Positions 1-53,599 of a DNA stretch of 64,000 nt are shown here, piece after piece; the stretch's first letter is position 1; each line of letters opens with the position of its first letter. The notes under the pieces were generated by a model. The model did no database searches, was not told the DNA's origin, and was given only the letters and a program-made list of their open reading frames with translations. The DNA is from Narcine bancroftii. Taxonomy: Eukaryota. A program made the position numbers and the translations under genes. The stretch is from NCBI RefSeq assembly GCF_036971445.1, contig NC_091478.1, positions 107,074,001-107,138,000 on the forward strand, written 5' to 3'.

Positions 1-99
1 CCTTTCTGCCCACACACTTATTTCCTGGAATTGAAGGAAAGAGACAGAAAGAGTGAGGGGTGAGAGTAAATTATAAATGTCCATTGCCACGTTTGTTCG

Positions 100-596
100 G
101 TGGATCAGAAGGCAAGGGTAAGAGAGAGGAGGGCAGAGGTCGAGGAAGGGCAGTGCAGCGAGGAAGGCAGGGGAAGAGAGAGGGGCAGGGTTGATGAGAG
201 GGGCAAGAGGGTTGGAGGGAGATGAGCAGGAGGGAGAGAGGTGGGTCAGGGTTGGAGGGAGGAGGGCAGAGAAAGGTTGGGCTGGGGTGTGGATCAGGGA
301 TGGAGGAGGGTCAGGCAGGATTGGAAAGAGGTGGGGAGAAAAGAAGGCAGGGCTGGAGGGAGGTTCAGGGCTGGGTTGGAGGGAGACAGTTGGACAGAGG
401 AAGGGGTGGGGTAAGTGCGTTGCATGGGGTAGGCTGGAGGGAGAATTGAAGCTGGGCTGTGGGGAGGTGGGTCAGTGCTGGAGGTGGGTGGGCAGAGGGA
501 GGGGCAAGGGCAAGGTCCAGTGGGAGGGTAGGGGCGGAAACTGGGTCAGGGCTGGGTTGGAGGGGTGGGTAGAGGGAAGGGGCTGGGCTGTCAGGT
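100..596. repeat. G/purine-rich low-complexity tract leading into the GC-box array
   Basis: Strong G/A skew on the + strand (gagagagg, gggaagag, gggtggg) with no clear period. Confidence 0.6.
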
Positions 597-3500
597 TGGG
601 CGGGGCGGAGTCTGGGGTGGCGCGGGGCGGGGCCTGGGCGCGAGGGGCGGTGTCTGGGGTGGCGCGGGGCGGAGTCTGGTGTGGCGCGGGGCGGGGCCTG
701 GGCTGGGCGCGCGGGGCGGAGTCTGGGGTGGCGCGGGGCGGAGTCTGGGGAGGCGCGGGGCGGAGTCTGGGGAGGCGCGGGGCGGAGTCTGGTGTGGCGC
801 GGGGCGGGGCCTGGGCTGGGCGCGCGGGGCGGAGTCTGGGGTGGCGCGGGGCGGAGTCTGGGGAGGCGCGGGGCGGAGTCTGGTGTGGCGCGGGGCGGGG
901 CCTGGGCTGGGCGCGCGGGGCGGAGTCTGGGGTGGCGCGGGGCGGGGCATGGGCTGGGCGCGCGGGGCGGAGTCTGGGGAGGCGCGGGGCGGAGTCTGGG
1001 GTGGCGCGGGGCGGGGCCTGGGCTGGGCGCGCGGGGCGGGGCCTGGGGAGGCGCGGGGCGGAGTCTGGGGTGGCGCGGGGCGGGGCCTGGGCTGGGCGCG
1101 CGGGGCGGAGTCTGGGGTGGCGCGGGGCGGAGACTGGGGAGGCGCGGGGCGGAGTCTGGGGAGGCGCGGGGCGGAGTCTGGTGTGGCGCGGGGCGGGGCC
1201 TGGGCTGGGCGCGCGGGGCGGAGTCTGGGGTGGCGCGGGGCGGAGTCTGGGGAGGCGCGGGGCGGAGTCTGGTGTGGCGCGGGGCGGGGCCTGGGCTGGG
1301 CGCGCGGGGCGGAGTCTGGGGTGGCGCGGGGCGGGGCATGGGCTGGGCGCGCGGGGCGGAGTCTGGGGAGGCGCGGGGCGGAGTCTGGGGTGGCGCGGGG
1401 CGGGGCCTGGGCTGGGCGCGCGGGGCGGGGCCTGGGGAGGCGCGGGGCGGAGTCTGGGGTGGCGCGGGGCGGGGCCTGGGCTGGGCGCGCGGGGCGGAGT
1501 CTGGGGTGGCGCGGGGCGGAGTCTGGGGAGGCGCGGGGCGGAGTCTGGGGTGGCGCGGGGCGGGGCCTGGGGAGGCGCGGGGCGGGGCCTGGGGAGGCGC
1601 GGGGCGGAGTCTGGGGTGGCGCGGGGCGGAGTCTGGGGTGGCGCGGGGCGGAGTCTGGGGAGGCGCGGGGCGGAGTCTGGGGTGGCGCGGGGCGGAGTCT
1701 GGGGTGGCGCGGGGCGGGGCCTGGGTGGCGCGGGGCGGAGTCTGGGGAGGCGCGGGGCGGAGTCTGGTGTGGCGCGGGGCGGGGCCTGGGCTGGGCGCGC
1801 GGGGCGGAGTCTGGGGTGGCGCGGGGCGGGGCCTGGGCTGGGCGCGCGGGGCGGAGTCTGGGGAGGCGCGGGGCGGAGTCTGGGGTGGCGCGGGGCGGGG
1901 CCTGGGCGCGCGGGGCGGAGTCTGGGTTGGCGCGGGGCGGAGTCTGGGGAGGCGCGGGGCGGAGTCTGGTGTGGCGCGGGGCGGGGCCTGGGCTGGGCGC
2001 GCGGGGCGGAGTCTGGGGAGGCGCGGGGCGGAGTCTGGGGTGGCGCGGGGCGGAGTCTGGGGAGGCGCGGGGCGGAGTCTGGTGTGACGCGGGGCGGGGC
2101 CTGGGCTGGGCGCGCGGGGCGGAGTCTGGGGTGGCGCGGGGCGGGGCCTGGGCGCGCGGGGCGGAGTCTGGGGTGGCGCGGGGCGGAGTCTGGGGAGGCG
2201 CGGGGCGGAGTCTGGGGAGGCGCGGGGCGGAGTCTGGTGTGGCGCGGGGCGGGGCCTGGGCTGGGCGCGCGGGGCGGAGTCTGGGGAGGCGCGGGGCGGA
2301 GTCTGGGGAGGCGCGGGGCGGAGTCTGGGGTGGCGCGGGGCGGGGCCTGGGTGGCGCGGGGCGGAGTCTGGGGTGGCGCGGGGCGGAGTCTGGGGAGGCG
2401 CGGGGCGGAGTCTGGTGTGGCGCGGGGCGGAGTCTGGTGTGGCGCGGGGCGGGGCGGAGTCTGGGGAGGCGCGGGGCGGAGTCTGGTGTGACGCGGGGCG
2501 GGGCCTGGGCTGGGCGGAGTCTGGGGAGGCGCGGGGCGGAGTCTGGGGAGGCGCGGGGCGGAGTCTGGGGTGGCGCGGGGCGGAGTCTGGGGAGGCGCGG
2601 GGCGGAGTCTGGGGTGGCGCGGGGCGGAGTCTGGGGAGGCGCGGGGCGGAGTCTGGGGAAGCGCGGGGCGGGGCCTGGGCGCGCGGGGCGGAGTCTGGGG
2701 TGGCGCGGGGCGGAGTCTGGGGAGGAGACTGGGGAGGCGCGGGGCGGGGCCTGGGCGCGAGGGGCGGAGTCTGGGGTGGCGCGGGGCGGAGTCTGGGGTG
2801 GCGCGGGGCGGAGTCTGGGGAGGCGCGGGGCGGAGTCTGGGGAAGCGCGGGGCGGGGCCTGGGCGCGCGGGGCGGAGTCTGGGGAGGCGCGGGGCGGGGC
2901 CTGGGCTGGGCGCGCGGGGCGGAGTCTGGGGAGGCGCGGGGCGGAGTCTGGGGTGGCGCGGGGCGGAGTCTGGGGAGGCGCGGGGCGGAGTCTGGTGTGG
3001 CGCGGGGCGGGGCCTGGGCTGGGCGCGCGGGGCGGAGTCTGGGGAGGCGCGGGGCGGAGTCTGGGGTGGCGCGGGGCGGGGCCTGGGGAGGCGCGGGGCG
3101 GGGCCTGGGCGCGCGGGGCGGAGTCTGGGGAGGCGCGGGGCGGAGTCTGGTGTGGCGCGGGGCGGGGCCTGGGCTGGGCGCGCGGGCGGAGTCTGGGGAG
3201 GCGCGGGGCGGAGTCTGGGGTGGCGCGGGGCGGAGTCTGGGGAGGCGCGGGGCGGAGTCTGGGGTGGCGCGGGGCGGAGTCTGGGGTGGCGCGGGGCGGG
3301 GCCTGGGTGGCGCGGGGCGGAGTCTGGGGAGGCGCGGGGCGGAGTCTGGTGTGGCGCGGGGCGGGGCCTGGGCTGGGCGCGCGGGGCGGAGTCTGGGGTG
3401 GCGCGGGGCGGGGCCTGGGCTGGGCGCGCGGGGCGGAGTCTGGGGAGGCGCGGGGCGGAGTCTGGGGTGGCGCGGGGCGGGGCCTGGGCGCGCGGGGCGG

Positions 3501-6289
3501 AGTCTGGGTTGGCGCGGGGCGGAGTCTGGGGAGGCGCGGGGCGGAGTCTGGTGTGGCGCGGGGCGGGGCCTGGGCTGGGCGCGCGGGGCGGAGTCTGGGG
3601 AGGCGCGGGGCGGAGTCTGGGGTGGCGCGGGGCGGAGTCTGGGGAGGCGCGGGGCGGAGTCTGGTGTGACGCGGGGCGGGGCCTGGGCTGGGCGCGCGGG
3701 GCGGAGTCTGGGGTGGCGCGGGGCGGGGCCTGGGCGCGCGGGGCGGAGTCTGGGGTGGCGCGGGGCGGAGTCTGGGGAGGCGCGGGGCGGAGTCTGGGGA
3801 GGCGCGGGGCGGAGTCTGGTGTGGCGCGGGGCGGGGCCTGGGCTGGGCGCGCGGGGCGGAGTCTGGGGAGGCGCGGGGCGGAGTCTGGGGAGGCGCGGGG
3901 CGGAGTCTGGGGTGGCGCGGGGCGGGGCCTGGGTGGCGCGGGGCGGAGTCTGGGGTGGCGCGGGGCGGAGTCTGGGGAGGCGCGGGGCGGAGTCTGGTGT
4001 GGCGCGGGGCGGAGTCTGGTGTGGCGCGGGGCGGGGCGGAGTCTGGGGAGGCGCGGGGCGGAGTCTGGTGTGACGCGGGGCGGGGCCTGGGCTGGGCGGA
4101 GTCTGGGGAGGCGCGGGGCGGAGTCTGGGGAGGCGCGGGGCGGAGTCTGGGGTGGCGCGGGGCGGAGTCTGGGGAGGCGCGGGGCGGAGTCTGGGGTGGC
4201 GCGGGGCGGAGTCTGGGGAGGCGCGGGGCGGAGTCTGGGGAAGCGCGGGGCGGGGCCTGGGCGCGCGGGGCGGAGTCTGGGGTGGCGCGGGGCGGAGTCT
4301 GGGGAGGAGACTGGGGAGGCGCGGGGCGGGGCCTGGGCGCGAGGGGCGGAGTCTGGGGTGGCGCGGGGCGGAGTCTGGGGTGGCGCGGGGCGGAGTCTGG
4401 GGAGGCGCGGGGCGGAGTCTGGGGAAGCGCGGGGCGGGGCCTGGGCGCGCGGGGCGGAGTCTGGGGAGGCGCGGGGCGGGGCCTGGGCTGGGCGCGCGGG
4501 GCGGAGTCTGGGGAGGCGCGGGGCGGAGTCTGGGGTGGCGCGGGGCGGAGTCTGGGGAGGCGCGGGGCGGAGTCTGGTGTGGCGCGGGGCGGGGCCTGGG
4601 CTGGGCGCGCGGGGCGGAGTCTGGGGAGGCGCGGGGCGGAGTCTGGGGTGGCGCGGGGCGGGGCCTGGGGAGGCGCGGGGCGGGGCCTGGGCGCGCGGGG
4701 CGGAGTCTGGGGAGGCGCGGGGCGGAGTCTGGTGTGGCGCGGGGCGGGGCCTGGGCTGGGCGCGCGGGCGGAGTCTGGGGAGGCGCGGGGCGGAGTCTGG
4801 GGTGGCGCGGGGCGGGGCCTGGGCTGGGCGCGCGGGGCGGAGTCTGGGGAGGCGCGGGGCGGAGTCTGGGGTGGCGCGGGGCGGGGCCTGGGGAGGCGCG
4901 GGGCGGGGCCTGGGCGCGCGGGGCGGAGTCTGGGGAGGCGCGGGGCGGAGTCTGGGGTGGCGCGGGTCGGAGTCTGGGGAGGCGCGGGGCGGAGTCTGGT
5001 GTGGCGCGGGGCGGAGTCTGGTGTGGCGCGGGGCGGGGCGGAGTCTGGGGAGGCGCGGGGCGGAGTCTGGGGTGGCGCGGGGCGGAGTCTGGGGAGGCGC
5101 GGGGCGGAGTCTGGTGTGGCGCGGGGCGGGGCCTGGGCTGGGCGCGCGGGGCGGAGTCTGGGGTGGCGCGGGGCGGGGCCTGGGCTGGGCGCGCGGGGCG
5201 GAGTCTGGGGAGGCGCGGGGCGGAGTCTGGGGTGGCGCGGGGCGGGGCCTGGGCTGGGCGCGCGGGGCGGGGCCTGGGGAGGCGCGGGGCGGGGACTGGG
5301 GAGGCGCGGGGCGGGGCCTGGGCTGGGCGCGCGGGCGGAGTCTGGGGAGGCGCGGGGCGGAGTCTGGGGTGGCGCGGGGCGGGTCCTGGGGTGGCGCGGG
5401 GCGGAGTCTGGGGTGGCGCGGGGCGGAGTCTGGGGAGGCGCGGGGCGGAGTCTGGGGTGGCGCGGGGCGGGGCCTGGGCTGGGCGCGCGGGGCGGAGTCT
5501 GGGGAGGCGCGGGGCGGAGTCTGGGGAAGCGCGGGGCGGAGTCTGGAGTGGCGCGGGGCGGAGTCTGGGGAGGCGCGGGGCGGAGTCTGGGGTGGCGCGG
5601 GGCGGGGCCTGGGGAGGCGCGGGGCGGGGCCTGGGGAGGCGCGGGGCGGGGCCTGGGGAGGCGCGGGGCGGGGCCTGGGCTGGGCGCGCGGGGCGGAGTC
5701 TGGGGTGGCGCGGGGCGGGGCCTGGGCTGGGCGCGCGGGGCGGGGCCTGGGGTGGCGCGGGGCGGAGTCTGGGGTGGCGCGGGGCGGAGTCTGGGGAGGC
5801 GCGGGGCGGAGTCTGGGGAGGCGCGGGGCGGGGCCTGGGGAGGCGCGGGGCGGAGTCTGGGCGCGGGGCGGAGTCTGGGCGCGGGGCGGAGTCTGGGCGC
5901 GGGGCGGAGTCTGGGCGCGGGGCGGAGTCTGGGCGCGGGGCGGAGTCTGGGCGCGGGGCGGAGTCTGGGCGCGGGGCGGAGTCTGGGCGCGGGGCGGAGT
6001 CTGGGCGCGGGGCGGAGTCTGGGCGCGGGGCGGAGTCTGGGCGCGGGGCGGAGTCTGGGCGCGGGGCGGAGTCTGGGCGCGGGGCGGAGTCTGGGCGCGG
6101 GGCGGAGTCTGGGCGCGGGGCGGAGTCTGGGCGCGGGGCGGAGTCTGGGCGCGGGGCGGAGTCTGGGCGCGGGGCGGAGTCTGGGCGCGGGGCGGAGTCT
6201 GGGCGCGGGGCGGAGTCTGGGCGCGGGGCGGAGTCTGGGCGCGGGGCGGAGTCTGGGCGCGGGGCGGAGTCTGGGCGCGGGGCGGGGCC
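597..6289. repeat. ~5.7 kb GC-rich modular tandem array (mostly ~21-bp units GGCGCGGGGCGGAGTCTGGGG(A/T) plus variants containing GGGGCGGGGCCTGGG(CTGGG))
   Basis: Periodicity is directly visible. Nearly every unit contains GGGGCGG(A/G)G. The array ends 28 nt before the MLYCD ATG. Confidence 0.97.
5843..6274. repeat. Perfect 18-bp tandem block GCGCGGGGCGGAGTCTGG x24 at the gene-proximal end of the array
   Basis: 432 bp / 18 = 24 identical units; seen as (APRPDS)n, (ARGGVW)n and (RGAESG)n in the ORF track. Confidence 0.95.
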
Positions 6290-6316
6290 AGTGCGCGGCC
6301 AGGCCCGGCGGACGGG

Positions 6317-6811
6317 ATGCGTTGGGTTCCGCCGCTGTGGAGCCGCTGGAGGCGGGCGGTTGCCAGCCTTGAGGCCCGGTTCGGCAGCGCGGCCCGAGGC
6401 GGCGCCATGGACGAGGTTCTCCGGCGGACCGTGGCGCCTGGGGAGACCCGGGACAAGCCGGCGCCGGCGGCCTCGCTGGAGCAGCAGACTCGGGAGTTCG
6501 TCCGCTTCTACCGCGGGCTGAGCGTCGAGCAGAGGCCGCTGCTCCTGGCCAAGCTGACGGCCGAGTACGGCGTGGAGCACGGCCGGGTGGGCGAGCTGTG
6601 TGGCCGGCTGCTCGAGGCCCAGGACCGCGGGCTGGCGACGCTGCTCCAGGCCGAGGAGCGGCTCAGGGAGTCGTTGTCCCCCCGCTACGCCCCCCTCATC
6701 GGCCGCATCTGCCGCCTGGACGACGGCGTCAAGTTCGTCGTGGAGCTGAGGGCCGACGTCCTGCGGTGGTTGCACAGCGGCCTGGCCGAGCAGCCCCTCC
6801 CCGAGGCTCGG
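6317..6811 (+). CDS. MLYCD: Malonyl-CoA decarboxylase, exon 1 (mitochondrial targeting peptide + N-terminal helical domain)
   Basis: [13 protein letters not shown]...GAMDEVLRR...FVRFYRGL...[16 protein letters not shown]...[17 protein letters not shown] matches MLYCD exon 1. Donor CGG|gtgagg at 6812, phase 0. Second in-frame ATG in strong Kozak context at 6407. Confidence 0.93.
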
Positions 6812-6902
6812 GTGAGGAGGCGGGGTGGGTTTGGGGGGCGGGCCGGGCCCGACTCCGAGCAACAGCGCCCCCAGTGGCCGCCAGCCCCAACCCCAGCCTG
6901 TC

Positions 6903-7256
6903 TGACCCCCAACGCCACCCCCTCCGTGACCCCAACGCCACCCCCTCCGTGACCCCAACGCCACCCCCTCCGTGACCCCAACGCCACCCCCTCCGTGACC
7001 CCAACGCCACCCCCTCCGTGACCCCAACGCCACCCCCTCCGTGACCCCAACGCCACCCCCTCCGTGACCCCAACGGCAACCCCTCCGTGACCCCAACGCC
7101 ACCCCCTCCGTGACCCCAACGCCACCCCCTCCGTGACCCCAACGCCAACCCCTCCGTGACCCCAACGCCACCCCCTCCGTGACCCCAACGCCACCCCCTC
7201 CGTGACCCCAACGCCACCCCCTCCGTGACCCCAACGCCACCCCCCTTGTGACCCCC
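6903..7256. repeat. 23-bp C-rich minisatellite GTGACCCCAACGCCACCCCCTCC, ~15 copies, start of intron 1
   Basis: Unit starts at 6926, 6949 ... 7202, 7225, 7248 (period 23). Confidence 0.95.
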
Positions 7257-9339
7257 ACTGCACCCAACGCCACGCCCTTTTGGGTGAATTGTGGAAGATG
7301 TTAAGTCGACATTTCTTTCGAAACTGGGATGTCTATCATCAGGGTACCTGAATTCATGGCTTTTCAGTCCAACTAGCTTGCATGAATTTCTTTGTTTCCT
7401 TTTGTGTTTGGATCCTTGGCTCCAGACTTTATGGGGGGGGTGTTATGTATTTTCTATAAAGACCGTCACGATTTCCTTGCTTTACGGTTGTCACGTATTC
7501 AACTTTCGGCCTTCATTATTTTTTTTCTTCTTATCCAATCTATAGTCTCTTCTTGCTCTTTAAAATATTTTATTGAGTTTAACAGAACAATCCATATACA
7601 AGATATTAATAACCATATAACCATTTACGGAGCAGAAACAGGCCATGTTGGCCTTTCGAGTCCACACCGGTATTCAGAGAAAGTTTTGAAAAGGTAATCC
7701 TACAAACATAATAACATACATTGCATAAAATTAAACACACACAATAGGACAAATTTTAAATTCCATCCCTTATTATTAAATGTGATTGTCCATTAAAATG
7801 ATTATGGGCATAAATCAGTGAAATGTTATTATAACAAATTGCATTGGACCTTAATAAAATCTAGAAAAAAAGATATTATCCAAGATAATCATAATTAAAA
7901 TCCATAAATCCATTTATCTAAAAAAAATCCTTAAAACTAACCCTCTAGTCAAGGTTACAAGAAAAATACTAAGATGGATCAGGTCGCGACCTCCAAAGGA
8001 AGACGGATCAGGCCCTAGAGCACCCAAATCATCTAAAACTGCCGGTTATGGGCCCCATATCTTTTCAAACTGGAACTTTTTTTTTATCTTCTAGTCTATT
8101 CTGAGAATTTATTTCCCTTTATCATTTTTTTGGGAATCTCTCAGTTCTAGTTTGCAAATATTTCCTTTGGTCTTTGCACTTTCTTTAATTTCTCTTCTAA
8201 TTGGACTACTTGTTCCTGAAGTGAGTTTGTGTCTTCAAGGAATTTATTGGAGTCATATGTTGCATCTTTATTGGCCAGCCATTGCCTATCTACTTCCATA
8301 CCCTTTCACACTTAATAGTTTATTTTGTTCAGATTGAACTAAAAGCACAAAAATGCTAGAGGAATTCAGGTAAAGATTTATTTCCAACATTTCAGGCCTG
8401 AGCCCTTTTACAATCAGAGTGTCTGTTGACTTTAGTGCTTCACTTCATTTGGTTCAGATTGAACTAGATTTTTAATATTTTCTGTAAATTCTATTGCACT
8501 GTGGTTTTCCCAGAGGCCCCTTAATTAAATACTTCTCATTCCATGGCACTTGATCTAAATTAGCCTTTTCCATATTCACTCCCTCAACATGCTGATTTGG
8601 ATATTCAACGTCGACCTTCTATGAATTCATGCACTTCACTTTCCCAGTATATATGTTGATTAAAATTCAATGATACTCTGTTATATGCATTTATTCTATG
8701 TCCTACATCAGAACAACTCTTTGATAGGATAAATCCCACCAATGTTTCTGCCTGATGTTGCAGTTTGCTTCACCCAAGCAGATTCTAATTCTAGACCAGG
8801 ATCTACTGTACCATTATTATCCAACGATACAAGCAGCTTTCTTTTTCTACAACATTCTTAAATGTCAAATATCTGGTTTGCTGCTTTAGATCAGTTAATG
8901 TGAGAATGGACAAGTGTAATTGATTAAAATATGGGGAATTCCTTTTGGATGTTCCAGAATGAATTTTTGAAGTCCTTTGAAGTATTCTCTCTCTTGCTCC
9001 TAAGATTGCAGAGGTTTATCCTTTGATTTTTGCTAATGAGCAGTCTATGTCATAACAAAATTCTATATGGATTCAGCATCTTTTCAATGAACCCTATTCA
9101 CCTAAATTTAGAATTATCCCAGCTTGATGACTGGTGATTAATTTGGGATTTCTGCATTGTATTCACTCATGAAAAGTGTAATGTGTCAGTACTTGATTCT
9201 GATAAGGACAGCTATCCTTGGGCTTTTGCATTCTTGATCTTGGGTGTTCATCTGAAGTGATAACTAATTGCACCTTACAATGGCTTATTGATGTATCTGT
9301 TCAATACAGAAAGATAAAAATGACAACTCCTTTCTAGCC

Positions 9340-10220
9340 CATATATCAATGATTGAGATAAAAATGTACCTGGCATGATGAGCAAGTTTGCAGATGACGC
9401 TAAAGTATCTACTATTGTAGATAGGAAGACACTTGCCAAAGATTGCAGCAGGATCGTGATTGGTTGGGTAGGTGGGTAGAGGAATAGTTGATGGTCTTGG
9501 CTGTAATTGTTATATGATTAGATCGGGTTGAGTGTAGGTCAGTGAGGTTAGGTGTAAGGAAGGACTAGAAGGGCCAAGTTGGCCTCTTTCTATGATGTAA
9601 TGGTTATAAATGTAATGTGTGAGATCTAATATGGGTCTAATTGACACAGTGAATGATGGGGATATGGGAAGTGTTGTAGAGCAGCTATTCTCCACTTTTT
9701 TTGGCTATGGCAATTAAGTTTAGTTATTTTCTGTACTTCTCTGATTAAATAAAAAATATGATTTCAGACAGTGCCCTCCCCCCAACCCCTGTTGTTCCCA
9801 GGGAAGCCGTACAGCCCCCATTGAGAATGGCTATTGTGGAGCAAAGGTATGTCGGAATATAGGTATATGGTACCTTGAACATGGCATCATAGGTAGATAC
9901 GGTAGTCAAAAAGGTTTTTGGCACATTGGCCTTCATCAACTGTGTATCGAAGTTGGGTACAAGATGTTGGACTATTGTATTCAGTTTTGGGTGTAGGAAC
10001 AATGTTGTCAAGCTGGAAAGGGCACGGAGAAGATTTACGAGGATGTTGCCAGGACTTCGGGAACTGAGTTGTAGAGGGGATGATCAGGCTGGAGCTTTAT
10101 TCAGTGGAGCGCAAGAGGATGAATGGTGATCTATTCGAGGTATGAGAGGAATAGATAGAATGAACATGGATTCTTTTGTTCAGTAACAAGAGGACACAGG
10201 TTTAAGGTGAGGGGGTGGAG
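9340..10220 (+). mobile_element. Decayed CR1 LINE 3' fragments
   Basis: aagtttgcagatgac (KFADD motif) near 9385. ORF 9926-10129 'NVVKLERARRRFTRMLPGL' is typical of the CR1 ORF2 C-terminus. Confidence 0.75.
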
Positions 10221-10239
10221 AAAAAATGAATAATTATTC

Positions 10240-10800
10240 CACAAATTGTAGGTCATCTTTTCAAGTAAATACTTGAATGGATTTCATTGTCACCTTTGCA
10301 TACTCAATTCAACATCGTTTTTCCAAGTGACAGCTGTACATTTTCTAGCTACTGCCAACCCTAGACATATGAATGCAATTTGAGATTTTTCCAGTCGCAA
10401 ACCTGTCGTTAGTGTATTCATATAACCCAATAAACATACTCATGGGTCAATTTATAGATCTATCTCAAATAAATCTCGCAAAAACAAAAATTTTTTCCCA
10501 AAAAGGTCTGACTTTTGTACATTCCCATACTGAATGTAAAAAAAAAGTACCTGTCTGTTCTCCACACCGAAAACACAAGTCTGATGAACATACTTTTCAG
10601 GGGTTAAATACAACTGATGCAAAAAATAGCTTACATTAATAAACTTCATAACACTGTCAACACACATGTTAGACCACTCCTCCAAAGATATAGGAATAGA
10701 TAGATGCTTCTCCCATTTATCTTTTGTTTTATATATATCAACCAAGGTGTGAGACTCTTGACTCTCTATCTAAACTATGTAGAAATACTTTTTTTTCCCA
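10240..10800 (-). mobile_element. Decayed L1/Tx1-type LINE ORF2 3' fragment
   Basis: 'KWEKHLSIPISLEEWSNMC...FLHQLYLTP', the same motif as the L1 piece at 57551. Confidence 0.6.
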
Positions 10801-11378
10801 AGCTCTACAGATGCTGAACAAAATTATTAACTTTCTCATTTGATTCGCTGAATTACTATGAAGTATTTTACCTGGCTAAGACGGATGAATTCTATTACAG
10901 ATAATTAATCTTCAGCTAAACTTTACTTCATGAACTTTGGTGTATTTTTAATGTCATGTTTTTTTAGGTTGAAGAATTCAAGTTTTTATTTGATGTTTTG
11001 ATACATTTGTTCAAACATTGCCTATTGCTGCAGATGTTGAGGTGTGGAACGCAACACTGCCTAGATAATGCACGTTCTCAATCAACATGTCACCAAATTT
11101 GAAATACTCTTTTAATAGCTCTTTGTTCAGTCATCTGATATATACTGCAGTTGTAAATGTAACTTTTGATAAGGCACTGTTATTCAATAGTATTGAAAAT
11201 TCAAAACAATTTTGCAGCTTTGGTTTCTTAAAACTTAGTATTTCTGAATTAGTTTATAAGATCATTTGGTTTATTCATGTTAACATTGCCATTCTATGAG
11301 GATTATCAATATTTGGCCAATGTGTGTAAAAAGTTTTTGTGCAGTTTAAAATTTGCCATGAATGCACATTATCCTGAT

Positions 11379-11492
11379 GGAGAGGTCAATGTAGGACGGA
11401 GAGGTCAATGTAGGACGGAGAGGTCAATGTAGGACGGAGAGGTCAATGTAGGACGGAGAGGTCAATGTAGGACGGAGAGGTCAATGTAGGAC
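11379..11492. repeat. 19-bp perfect minisatellite GGAGAGGTCAATGTAGGAC x6
   Basis: Six identical units read directly. Confidence 0.95.
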
Positions 11493-11548
11493 GTGACGAC
11501 TAATGCTGTTCTCTGACAGGGGACAAGGAATCTCTTATTCTTCTACAC

Positions 11549-14267: not shown

Positions 14268-14541
14268 ACTTTAGTTCATTTCCTAGTAAGACTAATTGTG
14301 GCTAGAAGCAAACCAAACACACTGTGTGCACATCTTTTTAAGGCTATAAAATATTATATCTCCAAATAGTGCACTCTGTTAATGAATAAAAGTATGTGAT
14401 AGACTGCAGTCAAGCTTTGCCAGAGTCCACTATAGCCTTTCACAGCTGTTTTTCTCTTCTTGACCATACAATAAATCCCCTGATGGTGTTCTTTACTAGC
14501 ATGGAAACTTCCTTTTAGATATGATGTGAAGTTACAGTGTC

Positions 14542-16624
14542 AAAATGAGTGGTGGACTAGCCTCGCCAAACGAACCCAGCTCAGCGCGGACATTGGCGAC
14601 TTCAGGGGTTTCTACGAGGCTCTAAAGGCTGTGTACGGCCCCTCACCCCAAGTCCAAAGCCCGCTGCGCAGCTCAGACGGCAAAGTCCTCCTCAGCGACA
14701 AGATCTCCATCCTCAACCGATGGTCAGAACACTTCCAATCTCTTTTCAGTGCCAACCGCTCAGTCCAAGATTCCGCCCTGCTCCAGCTCCCTCAACAGCC
14801 CCTAAGGCTAGAGCTGGATGAGGTTCCCACCCTGGATGAGACATATAAGGCAATCGAACAACTGAAAAGTGGCAAAGCCGCAGGTATGGATGGAATCCCC
14901 CCAGAAGTCTGGAAGGCTGGCGGCAAAACTCTGCATGCCAAACTGCATGAGTTTTTCAAGCTTTGTTGGGACCAAGGTAAACTGCCTCAGGATCTTCGTG
15001 ATGCCACCATCATCACCCTGTACAAAAACAAAGGCGAGAAATCAGACTGCTCAAACTACAGGGGAATCACGTTGCTCTCCATTGCAGGCAAAATCTTCGC
15101 TAGGATTCTACTAAATAGAATAATACCTAGTGTCGCCGAGAATATTCTCCCAGAATCACAGTGCGGCTTTCGCGCAAACAGAGGAACTACTGACATGGTC
15201 TTTGCCCTCAGACAGCTCCAAGAAAAATGCAGAGAACAAAACAAAGGACTCTACATCACCTTTGTTGACCTCACCAAAGCCTTCGACACCGTGAGCAGGA
15301 AAGGGCTTTGGCAAATACTAGAGCGCATCGGATGTCCCCCAAAGTTCCTCAACATGATTATCCAACTGCACGAAAACCAACAAGGTCGGGTCAGATACAG
15401 CAATGAGCTCTCTGAACCCTTCTCCATTAACAATGGCGTGAAGCAAGGCTGTGTTCTGGCACCAACCCTCTTTTCAATCTTCTTCAGCATGATGCTGAAC
15501 CAAGCCATGAAAGACCCCAACAATGAAGACGCTGTTTACATCCGGTACCGCACGGATGGCAGTCTCTTCAATCTGAGGCGCCTGCAAGCTCACACCAAGA
15601 CACAAGAGAAACTTGTCCGTGAACTACTCTTTGCAGACGATGCCGCTTTAGTTGCCCATTCAGAGCCAGCTCTTCAGCGCTTGACGTCCTGCTTTGCGGA
15701 AACTGCCAAAATGTTTGGCCTGGAAGTCAGCCTGAAGATAACTGAGGTCCTCCATCAGCCAGCTCCCCACCATGATTACCAGCCCCCCCACATCTCCATC
15801 GGGCACACAAAACTCAAAACGGTCAACCAGTTTACCTATCTCGGCTGCACCATTTCATCAGATGCAAGGATCGACAATGAGATAGACAACAGACTCGCCA
15901 AGGCAAATAGCGCCTTTGGAAGACTACACAAAAGAGTCTGGAAAAACAACCAACTGAAAAACCTCACAAAGATAAGCGTATACAGAGCCGTTGTCATACC
16001 CACACTCCTGTTCGGCTCCGAATCATGGGTCCTCTACCGGCACCACCTACGGCTCCTAGAGCGCTTCCACCAGCGTTGTCTCCGCTCCATCCTCAACATC
16101 CATTGGAGCGCTTACATCCCTAACGTCGAAGTACTTGAGATGGCAGAGGTCGACAGCATCGAGTCCACGCTGCTGAAGATCCAGCTGCGCTGGATGGGTC
16201 ACGTCTCCAGAATGGAGGACCATCGCCTTCCCAAGATCGTGTTATATGGCGAGCTCTCCACTGGCCACCGTGACAGAGGTGCACCAAAGAAAAGGTACAA
16301 GGACTGCCTAAAGAAATCTCTTGGTGCCTGCCACATTGACCACCGCCAGTGGGCTGATAACGCCTCAAACCGTGCATCTTGGCGCCTCACAGTTTGGCGG
16401 GCAGCAACCTCCTTTGAAGAAGACCGCAGAGCCCACCTCACTGACAAAAGGCAAAGGAGGAAAAACCCAACACCCAACCCCAACCAACCAATTTTCCCCT
16501 GCAACCGCTGCAATCGTGTCTGCCTGTCCCGCATCGGACTTGTCAGCCACAAACGAGCCTGCAGCTGACGTGGACTTTTTTACCCCCTCCATAAATCTTC
16601 GTCCGCGAAGCCAAGCCAAAGAAG
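14542..16624 (+). mobile_element. Young 5'-truncated RTE-clade LINE with uninterrupted RT ORF (stop at 16568)
   Basis: 680-aa ORF with RT motifs (NYRGITLL, QCGFR, FVDLTKAFDTV, GVKQGCVLAPTLF, LFADD, YLG) and a C-terminal CxxC...H. Short GAAG-type tail. 8-bp TSD ACAGTGTC at 14534-14541 and 16625-16632. Confidence 0.93.
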
Positions 16625-19600: not shown

Positions 19601-20800
19601 TTCTGATGTGATTTATTTTAATAATGAAACAATTCTTACATTATGTTTTTTAATTTTAAAATTTGTATCTCGCATGGCATGCAATAATAATATGAATGTT
19701 TATCTCTGCTTTAGGTCCACGTTAATCTTTTGATTAATTACTCTGCACATCGTTTTTAAAATTGCACAATACATAACAGCATTGCTTTCTATTTCGTCAT
19801 TCTTTTGCGTATGAGGAGCATCATCAGAAATATCCTTTGTACTGTTATATCCATGCTAAGTGCCTACCTGGAATTTACAAGGGAAATCATAGATCCATCT
19901 AGGCTTCAGAACTGGTTAATAAAAGGCATAGAAATTTATAACGTAAAATAGGCTATTGATAATCGTAAAATGATTCAAATTTGTTGGGAGGACTTATTGT
20001 CCTTTGTTGGAAATTGTGATGTATTAGAACACTCCAAGTGATGATGCACAGCTTATTTTCTTTGTTGTTAATATCAAATTCATAGAATTAATCATGCAAA
20101 TGAAGAAAGTGCAACAACCTGTTTTCAATTCTTATAACCTTGTTTTGAATATTCTTTATAAATGAACCCACTTAGGTTTGTTGCAAATTTTTTTCATTAA
20201 AGATTTTTTTAAAGTAATTGCGTGTGTAAATGATTGAAATGTAAGTCATAGCAAATCATATCAAATATTGCAACATCATTTTTTTTCCTGATCTTTTGTG
20301 CAGGTTTCTGTACCTGGTTCCATGTCCTGCTTACATTTTTTTTTGTGCCATTTTTCCATGTTCTAGTGTCAAAACAAGTGTCTGCAAAGTTAAAGCACAG
20401 ATTAGGTGTTTGGCTAGATTCACGGGCTATTCTCCTGTATTGCAAGCCATGTTCATGAGTGTAATTCATCTTAAATTCAAATTTCATTTGCCAAGAGCTT
20501 TTGTCCAATGCAGCCATCCAACTCGGACAAAAAAATGATTTAAAAGAAAACAATAGTGATTTGTTCCCTGCAAAGAAAAATGCAGTTCTTTTCCATTCCA
20601 TGCTAGATTAGGTGACATTGATATGGTATATGTTTGGGGTCCATTAGTCATATCACCAGTTACCAGAATTCTGGATCTTATTTTTAACAGAACTCCCTTA
20701 AAATAATCGGTATTCCCTTGTTGAATTGTTTGAGCAGAAAGGAATATACTTCGAGGCCTCAAGAGTTTGTTTATATTTTCTGACAAACTTTGTATTTCAG

Positions 20801-20913
20801 GAAATGAATGGGATATTGAAGACACTGCTTTCAAGTTGGTTTTCTATAGGATTCTTGAAGTTAGAGCATGTCACCTGGCAATCCTCTTGTGAACTCCTGC
20901 AAAAAATTAGTGA
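20801..20913 (+). CDS. MLYCD: Malonyl-CoA decarboxylase, exon 2
   Basis: tttcag|GAAATG...GA|gtaagt, 113 nt; [37 protein letters not shown]. Confidence 0.95.
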
Positions 20914-22119
20914 GTAAGTTTTTTTAAAATCAGTATGTGATTGACACAATCCCTAATATTCCAGCAAAGCTACAAACAAAATTAGGAATGTTTTAATAAG
21001 ATCAAGTCCAAGTATCGATCTCTTTGATCTCAAAGCTAGATATCAATAGTTAGTTTCTGATGGATCATTAAAGCACAAAAGGGGCCTCTTTGACCCATTG
21101 AACCTATTCCTCAAAGGCTTCAGCTAACAATTATCTAAAAGTATCTGCAGAAGTTAATTGAAAACATAATATGCTTCTGACTTCCTGCACTACTAAAATA
21201 TTGACTCCAGGCTAGCCAGTAAAAATGAGATTTTAATGTAGACTCTGTGCTGAGAAAATAGGTGGATTACCCATTTTATCAGTGAGTGGAATAGGAAATC
21301 TTCCACTGAGATTACAATGACTCTGGACAGTTAAATTTGATTTGTTGTGGGTGGATTTGAATCCACTCCCTTGCTTACCAACCCAAAGTAAAACTGAGGG
21401 AATTATTTTAAATTTTCTTTAAGTAGACGATCACTGTGCATGATCTGCCCATAATTTTAGTCAGATTTCATTTATTTTGGCATTTCAGTTTTGGAAATTT
21501 ATGATTTTGACTTCAGTTCAACTTTTACCTAAAGTCATTAAATTGTACACCATGGAAACAGTCCATTGAGAGCCAGTTGTTCTTTTTATACCTTGGCATT
21601 TCAAGTGCTCATCCAGACATTTCTTAATGACCCACCTTCAACCACTCTCAGGCAATGAATTCTAGGTTCTTTCCACCCTTTGTGTGAAAAAGGCCTCCCT
21701 TGTATCCCCGTTAAATCTCTTTCCCGCGCCCCCCCAAAAAAAACCTAGTGTCCTCTAGTTCTTTTTTTAATTTCTGAAATGGGGAAAAGTTTCATGCTGT
21801 CTATGCTCTCCATCTCTCATCATTTTAAATATGCAAATCACATCCTTTCTTAACCTCCTCTGCACAGGAAGAATGAAGGTAGCTTTCTTTCTTTCTCATA
21901 ATTGAACTGCTCTACCCCAGCAACATCCTGGTGAGTCTCTTGCACCCTCTCCAATTTCATCATATTCTTCCTGAAAGGTCTTGAGCAGAACTGCATACAG
22001 TACTCAATTTGACGTCAAACAAAGGTTTTCTAAAGTTGGAACATAACCTTGCTACTTCTCCATGCATGCCCTGACTAATGAAGGCTGTTAACACATGCAC
22101 CTTCCTGACTTCTTATCTG

Positions 22120-24300: not shown

Positions 24301-24650
24301 GTTCAAAGCTTCCCCAACAGTGTTAACAAACATCTGAGCAAGGATATTGATCCAACTCTAGTTAGGATGAACTCTGTCCTGCCTGCACAGGTTCAATTTC
24401 CCCAGAAATGGTCACAATAGAATAGAAAGCTAAAGCTCATCCTGCACCACCTCTTCAGCCATACATTCATCTGATTTATCCTTCTATTCCTTTTACGCAA
24501 CAGCTAATGGCACTGGAAGTAATCCAGAGTAGTTCCACAGATCACAACCTTGTGAGCTTCTGTTCTTTAAATGGTTCCCTTCTCTCAAAACTCACATATT
24601 AGGTTGTCTGCCCTTTCATTACCTATGAAAGCATTATTTCATTCTTTCAG

Positions 24651-24807
24651 ATACGAGGCAGTGCATCCTGTCAGAAGCTGGACTGATATTAAACGCCGGG
24701 TTGGACCTTATAGAAGATGCTATGTTTTCACACACAGTGCGATGCCAGGAGAACCTCTGGTAGTTCTACATGTGGCACTGACAGATAATATTTCTAAAAG
24801 TATACAG
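24651..24807 (+). CDS. MLYCD: Malonyl-CoA decarboxylase, exon 3
   Basis: ctttcag|ATAC...CAG|gtaagc, 157 nt; (E)[52 protein letters not shown]. Confidence 0.96.
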
Positions 24808-25505: not shown

Positions 25506-26305
25506 GAAACATCGTCCTCTGCCATAGGTGTTCTGTGGTTGGTAAGGAATTATTTAAGGTGGTATATGAGTGGGGGAAAAAGGTTGAGAACCACTGCCTT
25601 AGACAAAGCATAGAATATAAGATGAGAGAGTTTATGTTCATACTGTGTAAAATATTAATTGACTGCAATTTGAATGCTTAGATTTATAAACTATGCAGCA
25701 TGGAAACAGGTCCTTCAGTCCAACCCCTCCATAGCCAGCCAAGTTGTTTTCTGAGGTAGTCCCATTTGTCTAAGTTCAGTCAGTATCCCTCTAAATCTTT
25801 CTTTTCCATGGACCTGACTAAAAGTCTTTTTTAAATTTGGTCATTGTAGCTGCCTCTTCTACATACCTGCTACCTTCTCAGTGAAAATATTGCTGCTCTG
25901 TTCCCTTGTAAATCTTCCCATATCCTGGGAAAAAGTCTGTGACCATTCACCTTATTCATGTTTCTCATGATTTTATAAACCTGTATAAAGTCGTTACTCA
26001 GCCTCCTGCCCTACAGTGAAACAATGCCACATCTTTTCCAGTTTCTCCTGATAACTCAAGCCCTCCAGTCACAGTAACATCCTTGTGAATCTTTTCTACA
26101 TTCTTTCTAGGTTAATGTCATCCTTTCTGTCGCAGAGCAGGGAGAACTGCACACAGTGATCCCAAGTGTGGTCTTACACACCTGAAACATGACATCGCAA
26201 CCCCTGTACTCAGTGCCTTGACCAATAGAGACAAGTGTGCCAAAAGCTTTATTCCATCCACTTACAAAACTACGGGAAGAATGTGATGATTTTCGAAAGG
26301 GCGCA

Positions 26306-27304
26306 GAACAGATTTGAGAATGTCACCAGACTTTAGGGAAGGTTAGTTAGGCCAGGATTGCTTCCTTTGAACAGATTCTTTGAACAGAACAGATTTGAGA
26401 ATGTCACCAGACTTTAGGGAAGGTTAGTTAGGCCAGGATTGCTTCCTTTGAACAGATTCTTTGAACAGAACAGATTTGAGAATGTCACCAGACTTTAGGG
26501 AAGGTTAGTTAGGCCAGGATTGCTTCCTTTGAACAGATTCTTTGAACAGAACAGATTTGAGAATGTCACCAGACTTTAGGGAAGGTTAGTTAGGCCAGGA
26601 TTGCTTTCTTTGAACAGATTCTTTGAACAGAACAGATTTGAGAATGTCACCAGACTTTAGGGAAGATTAGTTAGGCCAGGATTGCTTCCTTTGAACAGAT
26701 TCTTTGAACAGAACAGATTTGAGAATGTCACCAGACTTTAGGGAAGATTAGTTAGGCCAGGATTGCTTCCTTTGAACAGATTCTTTGAACAGAACAGATT
26801 TGAGAATGTCACCAGACTTTAGGGAAGGTTAGTTAGGCCAGGATTGGTTTCTTTGAACAGAACAGATTTGAGAATGTCACCAGACTTTAGGGAAGATTAG
26901 TTAGGCCAGGATTGCTTTCTTTGAACAGAACAGATTTGAGAATGTCACCAGACTTTAGGGAAGATTAGTTAGGCCAGGATTGCTTCCTTTGAACAGATTC
27001 TTTGAACAGAACAGATTTGAGAATGTCACCAGACTTTAGGGAAGATTAGTTAGGCCAGGATTGCTTTCTTTGAACAGAACAGATTTGAGAATGTCACCAG
27101 ACTTTAGGGAAGATTAGTTAGGCCAGGATTGCTTCCTTTGAACAGATTCTTTGAACAGAACAGATTTGAGAATGTCACCAGACTTTAGGGAAGGTTAGTT
27201 AGGCCAGGATTGCTTCCTTTGAACAGATTCTTTGAACAGAACAGATTTGAGAATGTCACCAGACTTTAGGGAAGGTTAGTTAGGCCAGGATTGGTTTCTT
27301 TGAA
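26306..27304. repeat. 81/68-bp minisatellite, 13 copies, derived from a CR1 3' segment (intron 3)
   Basis: GATTTGAGAATGTCACC recurs at 26311, 26392, 26473, 26554, 26635, 26716, 26797, 26865, 26933, 27014, 27082, 27163, 27244. Confidence 0.95.
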
Positions 27305-30886: not shown

Positions 30887-30911
30887 GTTTAATTTTGGTG
30901 TTTTGTGGTAG

Positions 30912-31064
30912 GCTATTGTTGGGCGAGATCATTCTCCCGAGATGACAGAGGACATTGACAAAATCACCACAGCCATTTTCTACTCCATCAGCTCGACACA
31001 GCCAGGACTGCAAGGGGTAGAACTTGGAAATTACCTCATCAAGCAAGTCGTAAAAAAGCTTCAG
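30912..31064 (+). CDS. MLYCD: Malonyl-CoA decarboxylase, exon 4
   Basis: ggtag|GCTATT...CTTCAG|gtatgt, 153 nt; [51 protein letters not shown]. Not in the ORF track; translated by hand. Confidence 0.94.
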
Positions 31065-33485: not shown

Positions 33486-34295
33486 TCCCATCTAAAAATG
33501 ACTTCCCATTTGCCTTCTTGATTACTTGCTGCATTTGCAAAGAAACATTTTGTAATTCAGGAACATAAACTCCAAGGTATCTCTATGTAACAGCAAGGTG
33601 CAATTTTTCTGCATTTAAATAAATTTTAAATGACCTGGTAGCTGCCTGCTTAATTTTGCAGGTCAGATTTTATTTAAATGCTTCTTAAAGGGAGGATTAC
33701 ATGACATAATGATTCCTTAAGGCAAAGTTTATAAAATTTCACAAATTTTCAGATAAGTTGCTTTTGGGGCAAAACACAGCATCCACTTCACACGACAAAA
33801 ATAGGTTAATGCAATATCTTCTGGCCGGAGGGTCTAAAACTAGGGGATATTACTTTGTATAAGAAGGAGGTAGAAATGCCTTTCTTCTGCTATATTCTCA
33901 GCCTCCAGAGCTGTGAATACCTATCGATGAATATATTCAAAGCTAAGATCACTATTTTTGGATAGCAAAGGAACCAATACAAGTGGATTAATCATCATCT
34001 CCTTATTAAATGTTGAAGCAGCCTTTAAGAACTCTATTTCTGCTTCAGGTTCATGTCATTATAAATACTGTAACTTGAGTCCCTATTTATCTTGTGCCAG
34101 ATCAAATATCTTATAGTGCACAACCTTTATGTTGGTATTGCTCGTTTCATATCCCAGACATAATTTTAGTATTCTAAGTATTGGGTAACAATGGGACAAA
34201 ATGTGTTGGAGCAGAAGAAGCATAGTGTTGCAAGGATGGAGTAATATAACTTTACCAGTTGTATTTGAAATATATTTTTGATTTCTAATTTTCAG

Positions 34296-34829
34296 GGTGA
34301 GTTTCCTCACATTGAGCAGTTTTCCAGTCTGTCTCCAATACCTGGCTTTACAAAATGGTTGGTTGGAATTATCAATGACCAAATGAAGGAAGAGACTACA
34401 AGCAGGATCTTTACACCAGCCGAATACACAGAAATTCAGGCAATCGTGGGAGCTCCTGTGTTCGAAAAGCTTAAGAGTCTGCTTATCACCAATGAATGGG
34501 TAAAGTCTGAAAAACTTGTTCGAGTTCTTGAGTTACCACTGATTAGACTTTGTGCCTGGTACTTGTATGGAGAAAAACGTCGTGGAGCTGCACTTAATCC
34601 AGTAGCCAACTTTCATTTTCAAAATGGTGCTGTGATTTGGCGATTAAACTGGATGGCTGACACAAGTCCTCGTGGCATTTCATCATCCTGTGGTATTATG
34701 GTAAACTATCGCTATTTCCTAGAAAATACCAATTATAACAGTGTCCGGTACTTCGGGACAGGACATATTGAAGCATCTGAACAGGTTTTGAGTCTTGTAG
34801 CACAATTTAAAAAAAATAGTGACCTTTAG
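34296..34829 (+). CDS. MLYCD: Malonyl-CoA decarboxylase, exon 5 (catalytic GNAT-like domain, stop)
   Basis: ttttcag|GGTGAG. Contains SLSPIPGF and [11 protein letters not shown] (catalytic Ser and His motifs), [10 protein letters not shown] and GIMVNYRY. Ends [11 protein letters not shown]. Confidence 0.96.
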
Positions 34830-44836: not shown

Positions 44837-45772
44837 CAGTGGTTCTCAACCTTTTTCTTTCCACTCACATACCACTTTTAAGTATTCCATATGCCACAAG
44901 TACTCTGTGATTAGTAAGGGATTCTTAAGGTGGTATGTGGGTGGAAAGCAAAAGGTTGAAAACCACTGTTTTAATCATCCCTCATTGACTCGTTATGTGG
45001 ACAGTTTCATAGGAAATGGGCCAATGACAATTTTTCTCAAGCAAAATATTTCAGTAACAATTGGGGCTAGAGCAGTGGTTCTCAACCTTCCTTTCCTACT
45101 CACATTCCATGTTAAGCAATCCCTTATTAATCACAGAGCACCAACGGCATAGGGATTATTATGGCTCCTAGAACGCTTCCACCAGCGTTGTCTCCGCTCC
45201 ATCCTCAACATCTATTGGAGCGCTTTCATCCCTAACGTCGAAGTACTCGAGATGGCAGAGGTCAACAGCATCGAGTCCACGCTGCTGAAGATCCAGCTGC
45301 GCTGGATGGGTCACGTCTCCAGAATGGAGGACCATCGCCTTCCCAAGATCGTGTTATATGGCGAGCTCTCCACTGGCCACCGTGACAGAGGTGCACCAAA
45401 GAAAAGGTACAAGGACTGCCTAAAGAAATCTCTTGGTGCCTGCCACATTGACCACCGCCAGTGGGCTGATATCGCCTCAAACCGTGCATCTTGGCGTCTC
45501 ACAGTTTGGCGGGCAGCAACCTCCTTTGATGAAGACCGCAGAGCCCACCTCACTGACAAAAGGCAAAGGAGGAAAAACCCAACACCCAACCCCAACCAAC
45601 CAATTTTCCCCTGCACCCGCTGCAACCGTGTCTGCCTGTCCCGCATCGGACTTGTCAGCCACAAACGAGCCTGCAGCTGACGTGGACTTTTACCCCCTCC
45701 ATAAATCTTCGTCTGCGAAGCCAAGCCAAAGAAAGAAAATATGAGTGGAATGAAAAAGGTTGTGAACCACTG
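44837..45772. mobile_element. hAT/Charlie-type MITE interrupted by an RTE insertion
   Basis: TIRs CAGTGGTTCTCAACC...GGTTGTGAACCACTG; 8-bp TSD ctgtacat/atgtacat. Confidence 0.8.
45163..45738 (+). mobile_element. 5'-truncated RTE LINE, near-identical to the 3' end of the 14542-16624 copy
   Basis: ORF 45252-45680 differs from the C-terminus of the 680-aa ORF at only a few residues. Confidence 0.92.
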
Positions 45773-51250: not shown

Positions 51251-52899
51251 CGAACATTAGTTAGTCCAGCATAAATTAGACGTTCCCTCGAAAAACATTA
51301 TGAACTCTGCAACTAATTTATAGTTATTTCATTAGGTGCTTCTCGGTTAAAACAATGATATTTCTCCAAAAACTCCAAATTTTTTTCACTCTCTAATCTT
51401 CCAGAACTTTTGGTGAAAACCTTGACTACAAGTTCCTAAATGTATATTTTAGCTAACTATCCACAGTTCATTACATGTTATAAATTATTTCTTAATAGTC
51501 TCTCATTGGCAATTAATCAGTCACACATTGCCAAGCTGTCTACAAACCACATTAACTGTCTGACCCTTTGTAATATCAGCATAATTGTTTCTTTCACACC
51601 ATGTTCCAATCTTGGCCCCACAGCTACATCCAATCACTGTAAAATCCAGTTTAAATGACTGGAATTTAAATGGAACTAAATTAGATTTAAATGTGCAAAA
51701 ATGTAGATTGAGGAAATAATTAAGTTTTTTAAAGCTCTAATAATAGTGATGAATTATATGAGATTTGAGGATCTGAAATGTAACAGTGTTATTAGAATTG
51801 AAAAGTATCAAAGCAACTTGAAAGATTCCATTGTGGGACACTCAAGTGTCAAATAAACATTTGATAACTGGGCCTGTTAAATCAGATTGAAAGTTACAGT
51901 TCATTAAATATCATCAATTTAATTGACAATTAATAAAAATGTTTAAAATCTACAACAGAATAACGTTACAGAGTGTTCAGGGTTAATTTCCTCCCAAGGA
52001 CTATATGTAAGTGACTAGTGACTTTATTAAGGCAAATTTTGTGCCTGTGTCATCTCAAAGCTCAAAATGCAATTAAAATCCTTAAACCATAATCAGAAGA
52101 TTAATATTAAAAATGTTTAAACTCCTAATGACATGGACTGGGCATGAACGGCCAGATCAATTGAAGGAAGCCTTTCTCTGTATGTAGGATAGGAGGAGTG
52201 GAGGTTCACGTTGGGTCTCCTTGAAACTCATCTATTTCCAACAACCATCCCAAGAGGGTCTGAAATTAAATGTACAGCACAGTAACAAACTCTTCCAGCC
52301 CACAAATGCGTGCTGCCCAACTACACCAATCAACATACAACTCCTCTACATTTTTCCAAGGGTGGGAGGAAACCAGAGCAGCCAGAAATAACCCAAAAAG
52401 AACATACAAACTTCCTGCAGACAGAGCCAGATTCAAACCTGGGTCACTGGCACTGTAATAGCTTGGAGCTAACCACTATATTAGCCATGCTGCCCAAAAG
52501 GCAAATACACTCCAGCCAAAATATCCTTGATTCTGTTTCTTGGAATACTCTGACAGTCTTTGAAAGTTAATTGGTTACGAAAGGTTTTTTTAAAAAATAA
52601 TCGTAAATACTGCTTAAAGAAATTTAAAATCAATTTAAGTTTTTTTAAAATGCAAATAAAAGGTGCCTTAGAAAAAAGGAATTAAAGAACCTACCTTCCA
52701 CCCCCCCCCCCCAAGAGAAGAGGAGTCCTGTATTGATGGAAATGGGTAGATGTGGAGTCTTCAGTGCGTCACTGTCCCACCACTTGGCTCAATGAAGACT
52801 CACTATCTTTTAACATGTCTCTGGTTCCTGTAGGAAGATGAGAACAATGAACAAACATACTGAAGGAACTCAAAAGCACACATAGCATCTGTGTAAAGC

Positions 52900-53256
52900 A
52901 ATAGGCAGTTGAAACTTTGGGTTCAGCCCTTCATCAGGCAATTGAAACCCTTCAAAAGGCAGTTGAAACTTTGGGCTCAGCCCTTCATCAGGCAATTGAA
53001 ACCCTTCAATAGGCAGTTGAAACTTTGGGCTCAGCCCTTCATCAGGCAATTGAAACCCTTCAAAAGGCAGTTGAAACTTTGGGCTCAGCCCTTCATCAGG
53101 CAATTGAAACCCTTCAATAGGCAGTTGAAACTTTGGGCTCAGCCCTTCATCAGGCAACTGAAACCTTTCAAAAGGCAGTTGAAAGTTTGGGTTCAGCCCT
53201 TCATCAGGCAGTTGAAATCCTTCAATAGGCAGTTGAAATTTGGGCTCAGCCCTTCA
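52900..53256. repeat. 54-bp minisatellite (~6.5 copies; 33+21 bp subunits; alternating 108-bp super-period)
   Basis: Unit AATAGGCAGTTGAAACTTTGGGYTCAGCCCTTCATCAGGCAATTGAAACCCTTC; (RQLKLWAQPFIRQLKPFK/N)n in the ORF track. Confidence 0.9.
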
Positions 53257-53599
53257 CCAGCTTTCCTTTCTTTTGCTACACATTCGATTCCATTCATCAG
53301 GAGATTTTACAATGAAGACTTGATCACCTCAGTCCTGATTTGGAGATTTCTGAGAAATATCAGTTTTAACAGAGAAGCACCTCATGAAATAACTAGATAA
53401 AAGTTGCAGAGTTTACAATATTTTTGTGACACAGTGGCAACATCTAATTTCAGCTGCTCTAACTAATATGTGGTTGAAGAATACAAGTTGGTTGAAGACA
53501 GAACAATACAAATCTGGATCTGGGGCAAAAAGTACATTTCTCAAACAAATCAATGGGTTTAGCAATATCTGTGAAAGCAAAAGGATGGTCAACATTTCA

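Follow-up and report, generated by a model that had tools for sequence, protein, structure and literature searches.

A 5.7-kb array of GC boxes at the MLYCD promoter of the electric ray Narcine bancroftii

The promoter of the malonyl-CoA decarboxylase gene (MLYCD) of Narcine bancroftii carries a ~5.7-kb tandem array of about 260 GC boxes, which ends 28 nt before the ATG of the first coding exon (position 6317). This array is real, is specific to its locus as far as tested, and is extreme in scale among promoter repeats built of Sp1 boxes. The initial annotation of the window (the 64-kb stretch of DNA analysed here) had placed such an array at this promoter, and both its extent (597-6289) and its neighbour are upheld by the TRF call and by the protein match of exon 1; the 'several hundred' boxes, which it had estimated at ~250-280, amount to 262 by direct count of GGGCGG. 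Our best reading of the array is a locus-specific promoter minisatellite of the ALOX5, TRIB3 and CSTB kind, probably a tolerated one. Promoter VNTRs that multiply a factor site are a known class, and what is new is the intron of an antisense RNA that surrounds the array. Besides this intron, a modular build of 24 unit types, a 1,582-bp duplication and a pure block of 18-mers go beyond the initial annotation. Among the titles searched, in which subscription journals are thinly covered, none described an array at the MLYCD promoter.

Results

TRF made a single array call at this place (600-6288, period 22, 260 copies). Within 597-6289 (5,693 nt) GGGCGG occurs 262 times, always on the plus strand, while the remaining 58 kb of the window hold three copies; a motif count of the same interval found no CCGCCC. 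The boxes are mostly of two variants, GGGGCGGAGT (180) and GGGGCGGGGC (72), and 255 10-mers match the Sp1 consensus, which makes them predicted sites; 200 first-order Markov simulations gave a mean of 12.3 such matches and a maximum of 22. The motif keeps one orientation throughout, and 177 of the 262 box spacings are 22 nt, about two helical turns. The initial annotation was also right that the array is CpG-dense with G-runs on a single strand: its CpG observed/expected ratio is 1.09, compared with 0.1-0.4 in the majority of 1-kb bins, its 821 CpGs take up 29% of its bases, and it has 602 runs of at least three Gs and no run of at least three Cs (mean G4Hunter score 1.67). A search of the 64-kb window found no array unit past position 7,400. 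No E2F (TTTSSCGC) or BANP motif was found, and Rfam returned no match across the 64 kb. A viral origin of the array is unsupported, as a two-unit pattern gave no match in viral contigs. Open frames span the array on both strands (368-7300, minus; 122-6949, plus), and all three minus-strand frames exceed 2,000 codons; we rejected these frames as genes and regard them as a product of low complexity that is likely to mislead gene predictors.

The 262 units, arranged head-to-tail and each at least 10 bp long, fall into 24 types, of which seven (18-25 nt) account for 224 units. The array is layered, with two exact tandem duplications within a shuffled block and a homogeneous block next to the gene (Table 1), and such a build would be the trace expected from slippage plus unequal exchange. 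The flank on the far side has the GGGCTGGG motif in common with the array. Variation among units leaves the GGGCGG core untouched except for one base, a near-invariance that could reflect selection instead of tolerance. The MLYCD transcription start likely lies within the homogeneous block or abuts it.

Table 1. Features in and around the array, in window coordinates
Feature	Position	Strand	Remarks
Continuous CpG island, 6.9 kb	481..7360	.	Sole island of at least 400 bp in the window
G-rich, CpG-poor low-complexity flank, single GC box at 532	61..596	+	G 278/536; CpG o/e 0.24
Block of GC-box units of mixed type and shuffled order, 20-25 nt long (22 nt in most)	597..5841	+	
Exact tandem duplication, 389-bp period, 16 units	745..1521	+	388 identical nt at 745 and 1134
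Exact tandem duplication, 1,582-bp period, 73 identical units	1618..4815	+	1,616 identical nt at 1618 and 3200
Homogeneous block, 24 18-mers and a final GGGGCGGGGC box, adjoining the gene	5842..6289	+	
MLYCD coding exon 1, 165 codons, second in-frame ATG at 6407	6317..6811	+	
MLYCD exons 2-5, frame intact	~20800-20914, 24650-24807, 30911-31064, 34295-34829	+	tblastn of P0003 and splice sites; edges approximate
Second minisatellite, 23-mer x 15, in MLYCD intron 1	6907..7255	-	G-rich on minus, C-rich on plus; CpG o/e 1.05
Upstream antisense exon, overlapping MLYCD exon 1	6512..6540	-	X5 record 16
Intron of antisense RNA, 6,487 nt, enclosing the whole array	25..6511	-	1 of 2 RNA runs; contig depth 10.1
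Splice acceptor with strong pyrimidine tract	25..60	-	21/24 pyrimidines; 11 of 8,175 AG sites in the window as good
Downstream antisense exon, start; extends left of the window	1..24	-	Base 24 set by GT-AG register

Translated exon 1 finds human malonyl-CoA decarboxylase at E 3.6e-24 and shows 100% identity to MLYCD of Narcine bancroftii; the five exons map to 6317-34829, and with three other rays the protein shares 76-79% identity as well as the first methionine. The junction of exon 1 with the first letters of exon 2 is present in both RNA runs (X5 and X8, contig depth 77-110), which were counted as RNA because they contain this junction; as they were also picked through containing the gene, silent tissues cannot show up among them. 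Contigs of X8 do not cover 6282-6367, although contigs cannot demonstrate absence. In X5, array words reach 0.23-0.76 per copy, or 0.3-1.0% of the exon 1 contig depth, which hints that MLYCD transcripts mostly begin at the gene end of the array; the hint is weak because cDNA loses G-rich 5' ends and a start cannot be located from contigs. The goat MLYCD promoter has a predicted GC box and Sp1 sites according to PMC9956415, so that GC boxes are expected at MLYCD but their number in the ray is not. The C-terminus of the ray protein (34818-34826, plus strand) reads SDL, where three other rays have SKL. The tripeptide SKL is the classic signal for import into peroxisomes, and its replacement suggests that a peroxisomal form of MLYCD may be lost in Narcine bancroftii, though the ATG at 6407 is kept; the literature searched on peroxisomal targeting held nothing specific to MLYCD. 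Isoform X2 (P0002, 432 aa) is without the 51 residues of exon 4 (30911-31064).

Four of the nine runs were compared with positions 6236-6900 of the window (the DNA run X1, the RNA runs X5 and X8, and X9), and the well-covered DNA runs all come from one sample. In X1, the array edge and exon 1 are continuous within one contig, with zero differences and at a depth of 3.2. Nine X1 records aligned and eight were displayed; in six array records, which were set against the word counts of the assembled array (for three of them over just the aligned part, and leaving out one rare-variant record of depth 6.7), the depth per assembled copy was 3.14, 3.85, 3.97, 3.66, 3.41 and 3.38, compared with 3.2 for single-copy exon 1. 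Removing one copy of the 1,582-bp duplication would bring five 22-mer classes to 4.4-6.1 per copy, and the depth ratio of the 18-mer block was 22.6, with 23 expected. The commonest unit stands at 20-25% more depth than its assembled count. These word depths fit the assembled length including the duplication, and so speak against an artefact of assembly as well as against a dispersed satellite; they allow for a somewhat longer second allele and leave little room for exact copies elsewhere. They are to be read as contig depths, which are no copy numbers, from one run with a single-copy depth of 3.2 that possibly represents the assembly's own sample, and as counts of exact 31-letter words, which diverged copies would escape. 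Within the reach of this one DNA run, the array is neither much shorter than assembled nor widespread in exact copies, the two outcomes that the initial annotation had named as refuting its reading. RNA runs from other samples contain array units as well, the 18-mer and 22-mer in X5 and the 22-mer in X8. X9, which is labelled as another organism, gave four records, two of them exact (151 and 48 nt, depth ~3; matching window 6520-6670 and 6236-6279) and two short with four mismatches; these pieces are likely trace DNA, so that we draw nothing from them about relatives or about the 22-mer contigs missing from this run.

The array as a whole appears to lie within an intron of an antisense RNA. 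Record 16 of X5 (486 nt) aligns at 6511-6540 and then runs into the far side of the array: of the 30 unaligned letters that were viewed, 23 equal window positions 1-23 and seven precede position 1. Beyond these, the record has about 430 more letters outside the window. The skipped stretch reads GT-AG on the minus strand, and together with the junction this places the entire array inside the antisense intron, whose donor looks like a weak match to the consensus. The junction could possibly stem from a deletion allele or a chimera, but neither would be expected to hit so good an acceptor. It was not among the contigs of X8, so that one of two RNA runs is positive, and contigs cannot demonstrate absence. 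Both minus-strand ATGs in 6512-7300 meet a stop early, after 7 and 4 codons, and the upstream antisense exon is therefore taken to be non-coding. Upstream of this exon lies the 23-mer minisatellite, which mirrors the big array around MLYCD exon 1, shares the GGGGTGGCG motif with it, and has two variant units without CpG transitions; judged from this one locus, it may serve as the promoter of the antisense RNA.

Under common thresholds for CpG islands (GC above 55%, CpG observed/expected above 0.65, length above 500 bp) the array and its surroundings at 481-7360 form one island. CpG transitions make up none of the 11 rare substitutions in the array and none of the four differences between common unit types; the 11 were drawn from 17 rare unit types after dropping cases of indels or of recombination between common boxes and tails, and six of them are singletons and hence possible consensus errors. 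In four dispersed repeat pairs of the window, which served as a control, CpG transitions account for 11 of 64 differences. The rate of these repeats predicts 45% for the array, and under it zero of 11 has P = 0.0014, whereas without any CpG excess P is ~0.12. Indirectly, the result speaks for a CpG island of 6.9 kb that is free of methylation in the germ line, and we favour this state for the array, allowing that CpG loss could be hidden by a young array age, GC-biased conversion or selection and that the germ-line state is uninformative on tissues. The control repeats include two copies (14484-16623 and 45153-45733; 97.6% identical over 576 nt) of an element that we take to be LINE-like from the appearance of its 694-codon frame.

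Discussion

We consider it fairly probable that a GC-box promoter has here overgrown locally into a likely unmethylated and tolerated CpG-island arm of an expressed MLYCD gene. The array would have grown in situ out of the GC-box region that belonged to this promoter; slippage and unequal exchange, aided by G-quadruplex-prone sequence, would have driven the growth. Sp/KLF binding and the high CpG density would exclude methylation, as Sp1 sites are reported to guard CpG islands against it (PMC2515197), and the last few units would perform the promoter work, so that extra units would barely alter output.

Promoter VNTRs that multiply a binding site are described as a common class in humans (10.1101/2020.12.16.423078; PMC12776774), the former source also naming the 14-mer VNTR of the INS promoter, and the ray array has the marks of this class: tandem units of at least 10 bp, a place at the promoter of an expressed gene, and a predicted Sp1 motif in each unit. 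The Sp1/Egr1 repeat of ALOX5, reported as polymorphic and functional with 2-6 GGGCGG copies (PMC5125697), resembles it in having tandem GGGCGG boxes at the promoter of a lipid-metabolism gene, but consists of 2-6 copies of a 6-mer where the ray has ~260 boxes in 18-25-nt units. In TRIB3, a 33-bp VNTR with a C/EBP-ATF site occurs in 1-5 copies, is single in other mammals and shows a dose effect (PMC7425993); it provides the model for amplification of an ancestral site, since there too a factor-binding element (predicted in the ray) is multiplied in tandem at a promoter, the element being a C/EBP-ATF site in the one and a predicted Sp1 box in the other. Compared with ALOX5 or TRIB3 as so described, the ray array has ~40-50 times as many units. 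The INS VNTR is G4-forming and of kilobase scale, lies a few hundred bp upstream of its gene, is CpG-poor, and is not known to be built of Sp1 boxes. The ray array resembles it as a kilobase repeat that is G-rich on one strand, has variant units and lies upstream of a metabolic gene, and differs from it in being nearer to the gene, rich in CpG and built of Sp1 boxes.

The closest disease case is the CSTB dodecamer (EPM1), likewise a GC-rich promoter repeat in a CpG island, with 2-3 copies in the normal state and 30-75 in the pathogenic one, which are unmethylated in blood (PMC7348995); in that account the expansion stays below 1 kb and brings a strong loss of transcription, whereas the ray array extends over 5.7 kb and spliced mRNA is present. 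The expansions of FMR1, XYLT1 and C9orf72 are also GC-rich, G4-prone repeats at the 5' end of a gene with a CpG island; their 3-6-nt units are, however, methylated and the genes silenced according to the same source, in contrast to the long units, the lack of CpG decay and the expressed gene of the ray.

Several other explanations need to be weighed. The array might act as a copy-number rheostat, an expression VNTR in which the number of units sets the output of MLYCD, and perhaps of the antisense RNA, through kilobases of Sp/KLF loading. The regular orientation and helical spacing of a motif present in every unit, its almost invariant core, and the mirror G-rich array upstream of the antisense exon all speak for such a role, as do the TRIB3 VNTR, whose 1-5 copies boost transcription (PMC7425993), and the thousands of human VNTRs reported to correlate with expression (10.1101/2020.12.16.423078). 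We nevertheless consider it unlikely, as the established dose effects span just 1-6 units, core invariance would anyway be expected of a young, homogenised array, and the few array words in RNA hint, weakly, at transcription starts by the gene end. A wider proposal, which we hold to be doubtful to a greater degree, would see a bidirectional promoter with overlapping head-to-head MLYCD and antisense transcripts, each with its own grown upstream G-rich Sp/KLF minisatellite, and in the array a platform, variable in length and proof against methylation, by which electric rays would set MLYCD dosage and fatty-acid oxidation. If true, the locus would be a natural test of whether Sp1 sites keep kilobases of tandem repeat unmethylated, and of whether the output of a promoter keeps scaling once its sites number in the hundreds. 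The initial annotation had also thought of an Sp1 sink, which with ~260 sites looks weak given how many GC boxes a vertebrate genome contains, and of R-loops, which from read-through fit poorly because the one RNA that demonstrably crosses the array runs antisense and is hence C-rich.

A methylation switch of the FMR1, XYLT1 or C9orf72 type, in which the expanded repeat draws methylation and lowers MLYCD in at least some tissues, would find 821 CpGs within a promoter repeat to act upon, and hypermethylation of comparable repeats is described for several diseases of humans (PMC7348995). This idea, too, was put forward in the initial annotation, and it fares badly: the gene is not silenced in X5 or X8, both of which contain its spliced mRNA (and both of which were found via the gene), CpG transitions are absent from the array, and the MLYCD frame is intact and conserved among rays. 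We deem it improbable, and give slightly less credence still to a dispersed or formerly subtelomeric satellite that came to lie beside MLYCD by chance, for example as the scar of a chromosome fusion. Extensive fusions have left the species with 2n = 28 (10.1101/2025.02.26.637739), small shark chromosomes are described as richer in GC and simple repeats (PMC10620051), the low-complexity G-rich flank shares a motif with the array, and the commonest unit has some excess depth; but 3.1-4.0 per copy against 3.2 (exact words, one run) permits few exact copies at other loci, neither TTAGGG nor CCCTAA occurs in window 1-11,500, and spliced RNA connects both sides of the array. Least credible to us is an over-expansion of the array or of its 1,582-bp duplication during assembly. 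Although 1,616 bases are repeated without any difference, the depth fits the assembled and not the collapsed counts, and both unit classes recur in RNA runs of other samples.

The tolerated, likely unmethylated promoter arm that we favour is of wider interest in that promoters with long CpG-rich tandem repeats are mostly known from disease alleles that silence or weaken genes, and here 5.7 kb of such repeat stands at a working metabolic promoter with CpG decay not seen. Should the unmethylated state be true, the array would be a natural extreme for the protection of CpG islands by Sp1 and for the saturation of site-number effects; without a link between length and expression, it would be an unusually large yet ordinary minisatellite.

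Further minisatellites occur in the window. One within an intron of MLYCD (26304-27304) mixes 81- and 68-bp units with one TTAGGG each, and others lie at 52899-53260 (54-mer, 6.7 copies) and 11379-11493 (19-mer, 6 copies). In a window so rich in minisatellites, one at the promoter is less surprising.
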